Origin: an uncultured Thermoplasmata archaeon
GTDB lineage: Archaea; Thermoplasmatota; Thermoplasmata; GCA-020350865
DNA: 24,000 nt
Reading direction: 5' to 3'
Assembly (NCBI GenBank): GCA_965372465.1
Contig: CBDVCK010000006.1
Coordinates: forward strand, 12,258 to 36,257
Numbering within the stretch: the first letter of the stretch is position 1; each line of letters begins with the position of its first letter. Made by a program: the position numbers and the translations under genes. A model generated the notes under the pieces. The model had not been told where the DNA came from. It did no database searches and saw nothing but the letters and a program-made list of their open reading frames with translations. Positions 16,686 to 19,938 of the stretch are shown here, in pieces.

Positions 16686-16735
16686 TCAACATTGAGAATA
16701 AAGATTCATGTAAATCTATTTTGCTATCCTTAAAA

Positions 16736-16761
16736 AATAGCCCCGGGTGGATTCAGGAACC
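16736..16761 (-). repeat. Orphan duplicate of the 3' end (T-loop to 3 nt past the discriminator) of the adjacent tRNA-Gln-like gene
   Basis: aatagccccgggtggattc (16736-16754) is identical to 16845-16863. Similarity continues as aggaacc versus gaacc with a 2-nt indel. Same orientation as the tRNA, ~90 bp downstream of it. Confidence 0.8.
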
Positions 16762-16784
16762 CGCTTTTTTCATAAAAAAGTGGG
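16760..16784 (-). terminator. Hairpin with U-run downstream of the glnS-proximal tRNA
   Basis: cccgctttttt-cat-aaaaaagtggg forms an 11-bp stem with one G.U pair. Either strand reads a stem containing a T6 run. Confidence 0.5.
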
Positions 16785-16846
16785 CCAAATAAAGGGCATC
16801 TGTTTTGGGAAATTGATAATATCCGATAGCCCGAAATGTGAAATAA

Positions 16847-16920
16847 TAGCCCCGGGTGGATTCGAACCACCGTCTCGGGATCCAGAATCCCGAATGATTG
16901 ACCAGCTACAATACGGGGGT
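16847..16920 (-). tRNA. tRNA-Gln(CUG)-like, divergent; possibly a pseudogene
   Basis: The minus strand folds as ACCCCCG UA UUGU AGCUGGUCAA UCAU U CGGGA UUCUGGA UCCCG AGAC GGUGG UUCGAAU CCACC CGGGGCU A (74 nt). The anticodon and T arms are perfect, with GG in the D loop and an A1-U72 pair. Defects are a C2.C71 mismatch, a D stem with only 2 Watson-Crick pairs (U10, U22), and discriminator A73. Confidence 0.6.
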
Positions 16921-17014
16921 ATTTGGCTTAGACATTACTGGTATCAAATACCCCCTATTAGTCAGAAAAGTGCCTGGAGGATGTCGAATTTTCTTTTCTT
17001 ACTACTACGGGGCT
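16915..17014 (-). promoter_or_regulatory. Two-hairpin upstream module, copy a (H2 + H1 + orphan tRNA-Gln 5' fragment)
   Basis: H2: gggggtatttg (16915-25) / caaataccccc (16945-55), perfect 11 bp with a 19-nt loop. H1: gtcagaaaag (16961-70) / cttttcttac (16993-17002), 9 of 10 bp with a 22-nt loop. The fragment tactacggggct (17003-14) reads AGCCCCGUAGUA on the minus strand. Confidence 0.6.
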
Positions 17015-17074: not shown

Positions 17075-18760
17075 CTATTTCTTCTGCTGCTGCTTCTGAA
17101 TCTTGGCCCAGGTGTCCCGAAGGCCTACTGTCCTATTGAAGACCAGTTTTTCTGATATCGAATCTGGGTCCACGCAGAAGTACCCCAAACGCTCGAACTG
17201 TATTCTATCAAGTGGCTTTAAATCCTTAACTGCCGGCTCCACCTTGCACCGTGAGAGCACCTCAAGAGAGTTGGGGTTTATGAAATCCTTGAAATTTGCA
17301 TCCTTCTGCCCAGACGGATCAGGTACCGTGAACAGCTTGTCGTATAGTCTTACCTCGCAATCCAGGGCATGGGCAGCTGAGACCCAGTGAAGCGTGGATT
17401 TAACCTTGCGTCCATCGGGAGCGTTGCCCCCTTTGGTTTCTGGATCCACTGTGCATCTGAGCTCGACAATCTTCCCATCCTCCTTTATGGCTTCCTTGCA
17501 GGAAACAAAATAAGCATATCTGAACCTGACCTCCCTTCCAGGAGCCAATCTGTAGAATTTCTTGGGGGGGTCCTCCATGAAATCCTCCTGCTCTATGTAG
17601 AGCTCCCTGGAAAAAGGGACCTTACGGGTTCCGGCTTTTGGGTCCTCTGGATTGTTCACTGCCTCCATATCCTCTGTTTTATCTTCAGGATAATTTTCGA
17701 TAACCACCTTCAATGGACGAAGAACTCCCATGAACCTTGGAGCCGTTTTATTAAGGTCGTCACGGACGCAGTGCTCCAAGAATTCGAAATCTACATTACT
17801 GTTGACCTTGGCCACTCCGATTCGCTTGGCAAAGGCCCGAATCGCGGAAGGTGAATAACCGCGTTTTCGTATACCACTTATAGTAGGTAGTCTTGGATCG
17901 TCCCACCCCGAAACATGGCCTCCATCCACCAACATCTTAAGCAAGCGTTTACTCATCACAGTATAGGTAATGTTCAACCTTGCAAACTCGATCTGCTGTG
18001 GATGATATACCTCTATTTGATCTAAAAACCAATCGTACAGGGGTCTATGGTTTTCAAACTCCAATGTGCAAATGGAATGGGTGATGTTCTCAATGGAATC
18101 TTCAAGTCCATGGGCCCAGTCGTACATTGGATATATACACCATTTATCACCTGTATTATGATGGCTGGCATGTAAGATCCTATAGACAATGGGGTCCCGC
18201 ATGTTCATATTGGGGTGAGTCATATCTATCTTGGCCCGTAGCACCTTTTCACCATCGCCAAATTCCCCGGCCCTCATGCGTTCGAAAAGGTCAAGATTCT
18301 CCTCAATTGAGCGGTTTCGATAGGGGCTGTTCTCTCCGGGAGTGGTCCAGGTCCCGCGTGTTTTGCTAATCTCTTCGGCTGTTGAATCGTCAACGTAAGC
18401 CTTGCCTTTTTTTGTTAATTGCACTGCATATTCGTACATCTGATCAAAATAATCTGATGCGAAAAAGAGTCTGTCTTCCCAATCGAATCCAAGCCAGCGG
18501 ACATCCTCGATAATGGATTTTACATATTCCTCCTCTTCCTTGGCAGGATTAGTATCGTCGAACCTCAAATTGCACTTGCCTTTGTATTCCTCTGCAATCC
18601 CGAAGTTCAGGCAGATGGACTTTGCATGTCCGATGTGGAGGTAGCCGTTGGGCTCAGGGGGGAATCTGGTGTGCACTCTTCCTCCGTATTTGTTGGTTCT
18701 CAGGTCTTCATTGATGATGTCGCGGATGAAATCGCGTCTTGAAGGTTCTTTTTCACTCAT
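17075..18760 (-). CDS. glnS: Glutaminyl-tRNA synthetase, bacterial type
   Basis: From the ATG at 18760 ([20 protein letters not shown]...) the 561-aa protein is colinear with E. coli GlnS as I remember it: [27 protein letters not shown] (HIGH), [26 protein letters not shown] (KMSKS), [39 protein letters not shown]. The track's 40-codon N-terminal extension (to 18880) runs into repeat A1 and is not credible. Confidence 0.92.
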
Positions 18761-18800
18761 AATGAGTCCCCAGTTGTTTAAAAGGTCTATAATTGTTTTC

Positions 18801-18839: not shown

Positions 18840-18905
18840 CAGCCCCGGCCACCTGAGTCTTTAAGAACCCAGCTCTTCAAAGAATAATGTGAAGTTGAAA
18901 GGGCT
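18840..18905 (-). repeat. A1: degenerate copy of the 66-nt tRNA-Gln acceptor-mimic element
   Basis: Same length and ends as A2 and A3 (...GGUGGCCGGGGCUG 3'). The 5' end has decayed to AGCCC-UUU-CAAC, which leaves an A.G mismatch in the second helix. Confidence 0.5.
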
Positions 18906-18933
18906 CTGCTGAATTATAGCATTTTAAAAAGGA

Positions 18934-18999
18934 CAGCCCCGGCCACCTGAGTGCTTAAGAACCCATTATATCTCAACATAACACGAAGGTGAAGGGGCT
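18934..18999 (-). ncRNA. A2: 66-nt tRNA-like element carrying the tRNA-Gln acceptor ends; candidate structured RNA
   Basis: Minus strand: AGCCCC UU CACC [40 nt] GGUG GCC GGGGCU G. It begins 32 nt after the tRNA-Gln(UUG) 3' end and is followed by CCUUUUUAAAA. Confidence 0.4.
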
Positions 19000-19031
19000 G
19001 CTCTGATTAAATGCTTATAAAAGTAGAAGAG

Positions 19032-19102
19032 CAGCCCCGGCCAGAATCGAACTGGCGCTAAGGGATCCAAAGTCCCTTATGCTACCGCTACACCACGGGG
19101 CT
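19032..19102 (-). tRNA. tRNA-Gln(UUG), no intron
   Basis: AGCCCCG UG GUGU AGCGGUA GCAU A AGGGA CUUUGGA UCCCU UAGC GCCAG UUCGAUU CUGGC CGGGGCU G. This is a clean cloverleaf of 71 nt with A1-U72, G10 and discriminator G73. CCA is not encoded. Confidence 0.9.
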
Positions 19103-19192
19103 TTTCTGATATATATGTTATATTCAAAGCCCCTAGCAGTAAAAAAAGTGCTCGGATATTGTTGGGTTTCCTTTTTTTACCACCACGGGGCT
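19097..19192 (-). promoter_or_regulatory. Two-hairpin upstream module, copy b
   Basis: H2: ggggcttt (19097-104) / aaagcccc (19126-33), 21-nt A/T-rich loop. H1: gtaaaaaaag (19139-48) / ctttttttac (19171-80), perfect 10 bp with a 22-nt loop. The fragment caccacggggct (19181-92) equals the first 12 nt of the tRNA. Confidence 0.6.
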
Positions 19193-19256
19193 ATGATTAT
19201 TGCGAATTACAGCGAAATAGGCCCGGGGGCTGGAGGGAAACCGATTCTCAGTATTT
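19181..19256 (-). repeat. C1: conserved element (24-nt and 35-nt cores identical to C2)
   Basis: caccacggggctatgattattgcg (19181-204) and cccgggggctggagggaaaccgattctcagtattt (19222-56) are identical to 19688-711 and 19730-64. The 17-18 nt between the two cores has diverged. Confidence 0.7.
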
Positions 19257-19358
19257 ATTAGATAGTTTACCTCCTCATGCTTAAGACCCCAGGGCTAAAT
19301 AGCACAATACTGGGGGTAAAGGACTGATGCATATTTATACTTTTTAAATTGAATTAAA

Positions 19359-19368
19359 AGCCCCGGCC
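19359..19368 (-). repeat. Isolated tRNA-Gln 3' acceptor fragment
   Basis: agccccggcc is identical to the first 10 nt (plus strand) of the A elements and both tRNA-Gln genes. It lies 19 nt before A3. Confidence 0.5.
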
Positions 19369-19386
19369 CAACGAATTTTGTTTATA

Positions 19387-19452
19387 CAGCCCCGGCCATC
19401 TGAGTGCTTAAGAATTAAGCATTTCCCAACATAACACGAAGATGCAGGGGCT
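19387..19452 (-). ncRNA. A3: 66-nt tRNA-like element carrying the tRNA-Gln acceptor ends; candidate structured RNA
   Basis: Minus strand: AGCCCC UG CAUC [40 nt] GAUG GCC GGGGCU G. Compared with A2, the second helix carries a compensatory C-G to U-A change. The inner 40 nt keeps 14-nt conserved blocks at each end (UUCGUGUUAUGUUG, UUCUUAAGCACUCA). Confidence 0.4.
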
Positions 19453-19483
19453 GTTTCGAATATTAGCTATTAAAAGATAGAAA

Positions 19484-19606
19484 CAGCCCCGGCCAGAATC
19501 GAACTGGCGCCAAGAGATCTCTCCGCTCCGCAGGAGCGTTTGCCCCTCGAATATTTCATATTCTGCGGGTCCAGAGTCTCTTATGCTACCGCTACACCAC
19601 GGGGCT
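19484..19606 (-). tRNA. tRNA-Gln(CUG) with a 52-nt intron at the canonical 37/38 position
   Basis: Exon 1 is 19606..19571 (AGCCCCGUGGUGUAGCGGUAGCAUAAGAGACUCUGG). The intron is 19570..19519. Exon 2 is 19518..19484 (AUCUCUUGGCGCCAGUUCGAUUCUGGCCGGGGCUG). The spliced product is 71 nt. It matches the UUG gene except in the anticodon arm and variable loop. CUCU/GGAG pairing places G37|A in a bulge, and the intron contains a CCGCAG/CUGCGG helix. Confidence 0.85.
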
Positions 19607-19699
19607 ATTTGAATTAGCATTGTTGGGTGCAAATAACCCCAAGCAAAAAGAAAAGTGTTGGGTTGATGCTGGTTGTTCTTTTCTTTTCACCACGGGGCT
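19601..19699 (-). promoter_or_regulatory. Two-hairpin upstream module, copy c
   Basis: H2: ggggctattt (19601-10) / aaataacccc (19631-40), 20-nt loop. Its one non-Watson-Crick position is a U.G wobble only in the minus-sense RNA. H1: aaaagaaaag (19646-55) / cttttctttt (19678-87), 22-nt loop. Fragment caccacggggct (19688-99). Confidence 0.6.
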
Positions 19700-19764
19700 A
19701 TGATTATTGCGTATTACCAGTGTAATAGACCCGGGGGCTGGAGGGAAACCGATTCTCAGTATTT
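19688..19764 (-). repeat. C2: conserved element, second copy
   Basis: See C1. The minus-sense internal hairpin GGG(C/U)CUAU-N22/23-AUAGCCCC is retained in both copies, with one internal mismatch in each. Confidence 0.7.
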
Positions 19765-19784: not shown

Positions 19785-19885
19785 ACCACGGGGCTTTTCA
19801 GTTATATATGCTATATTCAAAGCCCCTAGCAGTAAAAAAAGCAACTGGAGATTACTGGAAATTCTTTTTTTACTACCACGGGGCT
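19785..19885 (-). promoter_or_regulatory. Two-hairpin upstream module, copy d; it has no tRNA body attached
   Basis: 5' fragment accacggggct (19785-95). H2: ggggcttt (19790-97) / aaagcccc (19819-26). H1: gtaaaaaaag (19832-41) / ctttttttac (19864-73). Next fragment taccacggggct (19874-85), followed by a decayed copy accaccacggaact (19889-902). Confidence 0.6.
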
Positions 19886-19938
19886 TTTACCACCACGGAA
19901 CTATTTTATAAATCGGAATGGATAAACGGTTATAAAAA

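Follow-up and report, generated by a model that had tools for sequence, protein, structure and literature searches.

A window of 24,000 nucleotides (nt) from contig CBDVCK010000006.1 of an uncultured Thermoplasmata archaeon (the whole stretch of DNA analysed here, 24 kb) carries on its minus strand a modular locus in which tRNA-Gln genes stand between two families of conserved hairpins, H on the 5' side and A on the 3' side. The two 11-base-pair (bp) hairpins reported in an original prediction from the same DNA are junction helices of this H - tRNA-Gln - A arrangement. Judged by the alignment of related loci, the helix is conserved, co-evolving and specific to the flanks of tRNA-Gln. Its best reading, which we hold tentatively, is as an RNA helix that forms in cis at the junction and serves as a switch or toehold for strand exchange in a precursor containing the tRNA and A, with or without H. 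Both inverted repeats are fully complementary as first reported: ggggctgctct (18994-19004) with agagcagcccc (19028-19038) across a 23-nt loop, and ggggctgtttc (19447-19457) with gaaacagcccc (19480-19490) across a 22-nt loop. In the RNA sense, their parts are:

19028-19038, minus strand: upstream arm of hairpin 1, tRNA-Gln(UUG) nt 67-73 (GGGGCUG) and the 4-nt trailer CUCU
19005-19027, minus strand: loop of hairpin 1, the 23-nt AU-rich spacer UCUACUUUUAUAAGCAUUUAAUC with a U4 tract inside
18994-19004, minus strand: downstream arm of hairpin 1, leader AGAG, C(-1) and the A2 5' strand AGCCCC
19480-19490, minus strand: upstream arm of hairpin 2, tRNA-Gln(CUG) nt 67-73 and the trailer UUUC
19458-19479, minus strand: loop of hairpin 2, a 22-nt AU-rich spacer
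19447-19457, minus strand: downstream arm of hairpin 2, GAAA, C(-1) and the A1 5' strand AGCCCC

Only four inverted repeats in the window are perfect over 11 bp or more with a loop of 10-40 nt, and all of them lie inside the tRNA-Gln cluster; 30 dinucleotide-preserving shuffles of the window gave a mean of 0.3 repeats of this size and a maximum of two. Each arm had been divided into six acceptor positions and five positions outside the tRNA. In the upstream arm of the RNA, however, the tRNA supplies seven nucleotides (67-72 and the discriminator, G73) and the trailer four. The five positions taken to lie outside were also said to differ completely between the two blocks; in fact GCUCU and GUUUC differ at three of five, having the discriminator G and the second U in common. 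Because A carries the tRNA-Gln acceptor strand, so that tRNA nt 67-73 face C(-1) and AGCCCC, seven of the 11 base pairs are automatic, and the other four are referred to here as the extension.

Ten related loci were recovered, L081-L085 and L094-L097 by exact-protein look-up and L089 by DNA pattern. Eleven related loci contribute 22 tRNA(-like)-to-A junctions to the alignment, in which the 11-bp helix occupies 242 cells. Paired cells make up 96.7% of this helix. Sliding the partner columns lowers the share to 43-62%, and in 500 shuffles neither the percentage of paired cells nor the covariation score ever reached the observed value. Outside the core, four of the five pairs have changed on both sides, and they vary across the 22 junctions as follows:

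Discriminator with position -1: GC 17, AU 4
Extension pair 1: UA 16, CG 6
Extension pair 3: UA 12, CG 7, AU 3
Extension pair 4: CG 15, UA 6

The arms thus change jointly in homologous junctions (26 cells altered on both sides), and the outcome named in the original prediction as evidence against the helix, extension arms that mutate independently in related genomes, is not the pattern that they show. The extension takes the forms UUUC/GAAA, CUCU/AGAG, UUAC/GUAA and CUUC/GAAG, together with one imperfect UUCC/AGAA, and its four base pairs are perfect in 20 of the 22 junctions; the exceptions are one extension with a single broken pair, in L095, and one degenerate copy that has decayed. The loop sequences diverge freely among loci. 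The length of the helix is fixed at 11 bp, since the U that follows the upstream arm and the C that precedes the downstream arm are invariant. The blocks of the window and those of L097 carry different extensions, each matching its own partner, so the strands pair in cis. The nucleotide at position -1 of A complements the upstream discriminator (G:C or A:U) in 21 of 22 junctions and mismatches the 3'-terminal nucleotide of A itself in eight of 22; it is therefore part of the junction helix and not of the stem of A.

The spacers between A and the next H provide an internal control, having the same GGGGCU/AGCCCC core strands at their edges and no extension pairing. On the 5' side of the tRNA, most H-to-tRNA junctions show the mirror image of the design (GGGGCU-AUUUG, a loop of about 19 nt, CAAAU-AGCCCC). 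The design is therefore specific to tRNA flanks. Two of these mirrored junctions in the window are:

19601-19640, minus strand: H3-to-tRNA-Gln(CUG) junction, H3 3' strand and trailer GGGGUUAUUUG with leader and tRNA 5' strand CAAAUAGCCCC, 11 bp, one of them U.G, around an 18-nt loop
16915-16955, minus strand: H4-to-tRNA3 junction, GGGGGUAUUUG with CAAAUACCCCC, perfect 11 bp, 19-nt loop

The elements on either side of the tRNA genes are themselves conserved hairpins built on the tRNA-Gln acceptor stem. A is about 66 nt long. Its P1 stem (AGCCCC/GGGGCU) is exactly the tRNA-Gln acceptor stem, and its P2 stem of 9-10 bp, with covarying pairs (CG/UA/GC and GC/AU) and a conserved U.G, is closed by an apical loop UUAUG...UCUUAAG. 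A begins with the inverted complement of tRNA-Gln nt 67-73, and its last 11 nt, GGCCGGGGCUG, are a direct copy of nt 63-73. H, of about 65 nt, opens with a copy of tRNA nt 1-11 (AGCCCCGUGGU); its outer stem AGCCCC/GGGGCU equals tRNA-Gln nt 1-6/67-72, and in its inner stem, 12-15 bp long, four pairs covary and sense-strand G.U or U.G pairs are frequent. These covarying pairs and conserved G.U and U.G wobbles indicate that H and A are structured RNAs of the sense strand that mimic the acceptor stem. The tRNA-Gln genes, H elements and A elements of the window are:

19821-19885, minus strand: H2, first element of the cluster, with the TATA-like box TTTATAAA at -27..-20 (19905-19912)
19635-19699, minus strand: H3, upstream of tRNA-Gln(CUG)
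19484-19606, minus strand: tRNA-Gln(CUG), discriminator G73, its anticodon loop interrupted by an intron of about 52 nt; found by Infernal (48.7 bits) and missed by ARAGORN
19387-19453, minus strand: A1, with P2 CAUCU/AGAUG where A2 has CACCU/AGGUG, a compensatory change
19128-19192, minus strand: H1, upstream of tRNA-Gln(UUG), inner stem of 12-15 bp on A7/U7 runs
19032-19102, minus strand: tRNA-Gln(UUG), 63.2 bits, A1-U72, discriminator G73
18934-19000, minus strand: A2, with P1, a P2 of 9-10 bp and the apical loop; its final 11 nt equal tRNA nt 63-73
18840-18906, minus strand: A3, degenerate; the extension pairing of the A2-A3 junction is lost
16950-17014, minus strand: H4, upstream of tRNA3; its own terminal stem contains a G.G mismatch
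16847-16920, minus strand: the third tRNA-Gln (tRNA3; CUG), with discriminator A73 and a C2.C71 acceptor mismatch

No copies of the A or H strands were found elsewhere in the window, outside the cluster. When the covariance models of Rfam 15 were applied at a permissive threshold, no family was found for A, H, the spacers or a further repeat termed B (described below), and only the tRNAs passed; the best non-tRNA matches stayed at chance level, with 14-22 bits (E 0.7-7) where the thresholds lie at 41-158. Several other identities of these elements were considered and rejected. Readings of A and B as C/D-box or H/ACA RNAs, kink-turns (K-turns) or glutamine riboswitches failed because, by eye on both strands, the boxes were absent or misordered. 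A is not the 5' leader of the GlnRS mRNA, since a glyoxalase-like gene on the opposite strand separates it from GlnRS in L081, L085, L094 and L097. A metagenome scan with the 3' part of A as pattern gave five matches, of which the only true relative was L089; a GlnRS search of genome contigs returned bacterial GlnRS loci alone (62-73% identity), none with H or A elements; and the distant relatives L086-L088 have plain tRNA-Gln genes with neither H nor A.

The original prediction held that the 3' acceptor strand of the tRNA could pair either within the cloverleaf or with the downstream element. This is borne out in a stronger form than was claimed: the tRNA 3' strand recurs as a direct copy at the end of A, which permits both acceptor strands to change partners completely. 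The 11-bp junction helix then joins the tRNA 3' strand to the A leader, and the 5' strand of the tRNA is taken up by the 3' end of A. In nearest-neighbour calculations (ViennaRNA), the strand-swapped fold is the minimum-energy structure of 13 of 15 tRNA-spacer-A units, with an advantage of 1.5-8.8 kcal/mol over the best fold in which the cloverleaf acceptor stem is forced. Replacement in silico of the four leader nucleotides removes most or all of this advantage. Whole H-tRNA-A blocks are predicted to fold entirely in the swapped register, and the minimum-energy folds of growing transcripts alternate between registers. A striking case is that of H4 and tRNA3. The H4 3' arm and the tRNA3 5' arm pair perfectly, as do the H4 5' strand and the tRNA3 3' strand, whereas C2.C71 and the G.G mismatch spoil the conventional stems; the predicted energies are -58.7 kcal/mol for the swapped fold and -41.3 kcal/mol for the conventional one. 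As this double change keeps the swapped helices perfect, the H4-tRNA3 junction repeat has evolved in concert at the cost of the conventional stems.

If the helix forms in RNA in vivo, a single RNA would carry the tRNA and A, and the extension would act as a cis toehold that stabilizes the strand-exchanged fold, in which the tRNA 3' strand and trailer are paired with the leader and 5' strand of A. The 5' strand of the tRNA could then pair with the identical 3' strand of A, or with that of H on the other side. The precursor would toggle between a cloverleaf accompanied by an A hairpin and a non-cloverleaf fold that masks the acceptor strands and the discriminator. In the latter fold the discriminator would lie at a helix junction, as would the sites at which RNase P and tRNase Z cut. 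A likely role would be to order or gate the end-processing of tRNA-Gln, with H and A serving as acceptor-stem-like punctuation for the end-processing enzymes. The usual view of a tRNA precursor is that of a cloverleaf with disposable flanks; here the flanks are conserved structured RNAs with exact copies of the acceptor strands, and covarying toeholds make a non-cloverleaf fold the predicted ground state. Such a helix would be a conformational gate built into tRNA maturation and a natural instance of toehold-mediated strand exchange. Since it lies beside a horizontally acquired GlnRS, it would bear on how an archaeon makes room for a second pathway to Gln-tRNA.

A bolder version, which we consider unlikely, is that the H - tRNA-Gln - A block is a programmed 'pro-tRNA', in which mimic hairpins would capture both acceptor strands through toeholds of 4-5 nt, a process akin to branch migration between identical duplexes (an RNA four-way junction). 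The tRNA would remain masked until the swap is undone by processing or by a cofactor. The gate could then set how much G73-type tRNA-Gln reaches the bacterial-type GlnRS, a horizontally acquired enzyme, in archaea that also keep the GatDE route.

Several observations weigh against a junction helix acting in RNA. The predicted advantage of 1.5-8.8 kcal/mol comes from nearest-neighbour energies, which leave out tRNA tertiary contacts, modifications, proteins, kinetics and co-transcriptional processing, and a ground-state fold that opens the tRNA looks costly. In L081 the trailer makes a 9-bp hairpin of its own that includes the discriminator, and the cloverleaf stays the predicted minimum. Independent compensatory changes are few, about five, and some of the sharing among junctions comes from gene conversion between blocks; the spacers of the two L081 blocks, for example, are identical, which indicates conversion. 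A.C-type mismatches in the core are tolerated in junctions of L081, L084 and L094, so that strict conservation may be confined to a 5-bp stem within the 11 bp. Pairing in the junction arms keeps strictly to Watson-Crick rules (G.U in one of 242 cells), which an RNA helix does not usually do and which sets the arms apart from the G.U-rich stems of H and A. That the tRNA and A are co-transcribed we infer from a single feature, the lack of a canonically spaced TATA box for A. Finally, the U4-U6 tracts in the spacer loops could end archaeal transcription before the downstream arm is made.

The most serious alternative, although on balance we think it unlikely, is that the repeats are DNA-level palindromes without RNA function: the ends of tRNA-Gln would have been duplicated, both direct and inverted, in a recombination-prone cluster, and intrastrand template switching (quasipalindrome correction) or gene conversion would copy changes from one arm to the other and so mimic covariation. 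Through quasipalindrome-templated mutation, which needs no selection, the two arms of a short inverted repeat change in concert and stay strictly Watson-Crick. The near-absence of G.U pairs from the arms, unlike the adjacent RNA stems, is what such a process would leave. So are the paired changes of H4 and tRNA3, which harm the tRNA3 acceptor (C2.C71) and the H4 stem while the palindrome stays perfect. Tandem A copies, orphan strand fragments, a recombinant leader (the tRNA3 of L083 has an A-type leader), the converted spacers of L081 and assembly breaks (runs of N) in L082 and L083 all point to recombination in the cluster. What this explanation leaves unaccounted for is the fixed arm length, the restriction to tRNA flanks and the conservation of the H-tRNA-A order. 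Free-running template switching should lengthen or erode the arms, yet the arm is 11 bp with invariant mismatched flanks in 22 of 22 junctions, and the A-to-H spacers, which have the same GGGGCU/AGCCCC bounds, lack extension pairing. Among loci with a GlnRS 83-89% identical to that of the window, the arms remain perfect although the loops have diverged, and H and A are clearly constrained as RNA, so that the region reads as an expressed, structured RNA. In view of the strictly Watson-Crick arms and of template switching, an RNA helix is a candidate for the object under selection. The palindrome and the RNA helix are not mutually exclusive. A palindrome in DNA only would be a clean natural case of concerted palindrome evolution overriding the integrity of a tRNA stem, that of tRNA3 in the window.

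An improbable alternative to both is that the spacers are terminator-plus-promoter modules between mini-genes. The U-rich trailer would end the tRNA, the AT-rich loop would hold the TATA box for A, and the two arms would lie on separate RNAs. In that case the repeat would serve protein binding or DNA structure at the promoter, or would arise incidentally where trailers rich in pyrimidines face initiation regions rich in purines. The dimensions agree with this, for the spacers are 25-33 nt long and AT-rich with GC-rich strands at their edges, about the size of an archaeal core promoter. TATA-like boxes lie at -27..-20 ahead of several H elements, an invariant pyrimidine-purine step (C|G or C|A) opens the downstream arm, and the U4-U6 tracts fall within the loops. 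AT-rich boxes occur in all of the spacers. The one before A, however, is at -23..-16, about 4 nt too close, so that initiation would fall inside the 5' strand of A. The extensions vary and yet remain complementary, which argues against sequence-specific recognition by a protein, and UUAC/GUAA pairs despite breaking the pyrimidine/purine rule. Nor do the spacers form intrinsic terminators (a hairpin followed by a U-run), the U4-U6 tract being inside the loop and the downstream arm being followed by UUC, UGC or UUU-C. A conserved, canonical promoter-like box, AATGATTTTTATAA or TTTATAAA, is found just upstream of the first H of the cluster in several loci, among them the window (19905-19912, minus strand), L081 (about 2222-2232) and L097 (about 2240-2250). 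It is consistent with transcription of the cluster, or of each block, beginning at or near the 5' end of H.

Very improbable is the proposal that the units are scars of integrative or small mobile elements at the 3' end of tRNA-Gln, in which the 11-nt repeat GGCCGGGGCUG around 'spacer plus A body' would be an attachment-site (att) or target-site duplication and the inverted repeat part of an element end. Integrative elements leave partial tRNA duplications (att sites) as direct repeats around the inserted DNA, and arrays of them can accumulate. A direct repeat of the tRNA 3' end, 11 nt long, does bound each A unit; each H unit is bounded likewise by 11 nt repeated from the tRNA 5' end (AGCCCCGUGGU); and copy number differs among loci. 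The inserts, in contrast to those of att duplications, are conserved structured RNAs of 60-70 nt between repeats of only 11 nt, with no recombinase or element genes and no viral or plasmid counterpart: no integrase or transposase Pfam domain was found in the window, there was no plasmid match, and among the 80 of 86 viral-contig matches to the junction 15-mer that were listed, none had a tRNA or repeat context, as expected of chance 15-mers. H and A are syntenic, conserved and internally covarying in 11 loci, which is not scar-like, and have no copies elsewhere in the window. Coincidence, or a trivial result of neighbours sharing an acceptor stem, accounts for the seven automatic base pairs and can be dismissed for the other four. 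Those four exist in at least four complementary variants and are intact in 20 of 22 junctions. The covariation test refutes this reading, which is at odds also with the 43-62% pairing of the slid controls and with the A-to-H junctions, which have the same core strands and no extension.

The arrangement matches no published description that a literature search turned up; analogues only were found. The nearest are the t-elements and acceptor-stem-like stem-loops of plant mitochondria, non-tRNA hairpins that are thought to direct RNase P and RNase Z (PMC1920247). H and A likewise mimic an acceptor stem: the P1 stem of A and the outer stem of H are identical to tRNA-Gln nt 1-6/67-72. Like t-elements, these hairpins adjoin genes in what would be longer transcripts. 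They differ in that the classical T-arm motif GGTTCRANYCC was not found in the A or H alignments, and in that t-elements punctuate mRNAs and not a tRNA of the same identity. A covarying helix to a neighbouring tRNA and a potential for strand swapping are not described for t-elements, and H and A are known from sequence alone.

The split and permuted tRNA genes of archaea (N. equitans, C. maquilingensis) have complementary leader and trailer sequences (PMC4033280). They resemble the present locus in that a 3' flank and the next 5' flank of an archaeal precursor make a GC-rich helix that covaries since pairing alone matters. Their helices, however, form a bulge-helix-bulge that is cut by the splicing endonuclease, whereas those described here are uninterrupted 11-bp duplexes; tRNA-Gln(UUG) and tRNA-Gln(CUG) are complete without joining, and the downstream partner is not a tRNA half. 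Cleavage of the hairpin by the splicing endonuclease, which had been suggested, therefore finds no support, the helices being perfect and without a bulge-helix-bulge motif. An ad hoc scan for 3-4-3 bulge-helix-bulge structures, made for the intron or split-tRNA reading, was noisy enough to miss the known intron and gave weak, GU-rich, non-conserved candidates, none of them at the junctions.

In a third analogue, pairing of the 5' leader of a pre-tRNA with its 3' end lengthens the acceptor stem and inhibits RNase P (PMC9433436). The likeness is that flank pairing beside an acceptor stem modulates the access of a processing enzyme, and the difference is that the flanks there belong to the same tRNA, whereas here each flank pairs with a separate neighbour and can invade the acceptor stem. 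None of the systems compared joins exact copies of both acceptor strands, with covarying toeholds, to the flanks of an intact tRNA.

The gene content of the window is archaeal (class I LysRS, PurP, archaeal phosphopantothenate synthetase, XPD), and the minus-strand cluster spans from LysRS to just past GlnRS. In the sense direction the order is H2, B2, H3, tRNA-Gln(CUG, intron), A1, an A-like remnant, B1, H1, tRNA-Gln(UUG), A2 and A3, followed by GlnRS, H4, tRNA-Gln(CUG, A73) and a partial copy of a tRNA 3' end. The three tRNA-Gln genes, with anticodons UUG, CUG and CUG, score 63.2, 48.7 and 48.1 bits with RF00005 against a gathering threshold of 29. The intron of tRNA-Gln(CUG) is present also in the L085 and L094 orthologues; those of L081, L095 and L097 are without it. 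The GlnRS gene (17075-18763, minus strand) is of bacterial type, its product being 80-89% identical to proteins of metagenome-assembled genomes (MAGs) labelled 'Thermoplasmata archaeon' and 62-73% identical to bacterial GlnRS. It is flanked by the tRNA-Gln genes, two upstream with G73 and one downstream with A73. In L094 (6358-7650), a GatD gene lies about 1.2 kb from GlnRS, so this lineage may run both routes to Gln-tRNA.

The region downstream of tRNA3 (about 16732-16790, minus strand) contains a hairpin with an A6/U6 stem, then a truncated copy of the T-arm and acceptor, GGGUUCCUGAAUCCACCCGGGGCUA, and then a U6 run. The partial copy itself is:

16738-16762 (approximate), minus strand: partial copy of tRNA3, which keeps a T-arm-like stretch

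Counterparts of this region were found in L097 (6574-6625) and L081 (5545-5575). It is followed in L081, L084 and L097 by a second A-like family (UAGCCCC...GGAGCUA), which has junction helices of its own with A:U between the discriminator and position -1. Two stretches of the window (about 19262-19330 and 19359-19369, minus strand) hold an A-like remnant, ACCCCCAGUAUUGUGCUAUUUAGCCCUGGGGUCUUAAGCAUGAGGAGG, which is similar to a variant A copy in L089, and, near it, an orphan copy of GGCCGGGGCU with a U-run after it. Similar orphan copies with U-runs end the clusters of L081, L089, L096 and L097, and may be terminator-like.

The B repeat, of about 60 nt (ACUGAGAAUCGGUUUCCCUCCAGCCCCCGGG...AAUAAUCAU), has two copies in the window, at about 19196-19256 and 19703-19764 on the minus strand, each directly upstream of an H element. 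Its core is 94% identical between the copies, and it was not found in any of the ten related loci. Its Rfam result was a sub-threshold match to a C/D small nucleolar RNA (E 0.7), with no proper C or D boxes visible.

Two otherwise closed MAG chromosomes are interrupted by runs of 100 N within the tRNA-Gln/H/A cluster (L082, 2650-2749; L083, 2655-2754). The repeats of the cluster apparently break assemblies, and copy numbers in MAGs may therefore be underestimates. In distant relatives without H or A, genes for RTC (RNA 3'-phosphate cyclase) and CinA lie upstream of tRNA-Gln and GlnRS (L087, 1755-3286; L088, 1773-3283); this neighbourhood is probably coincidental, although RTC is an RNA-end-processing enzyme.

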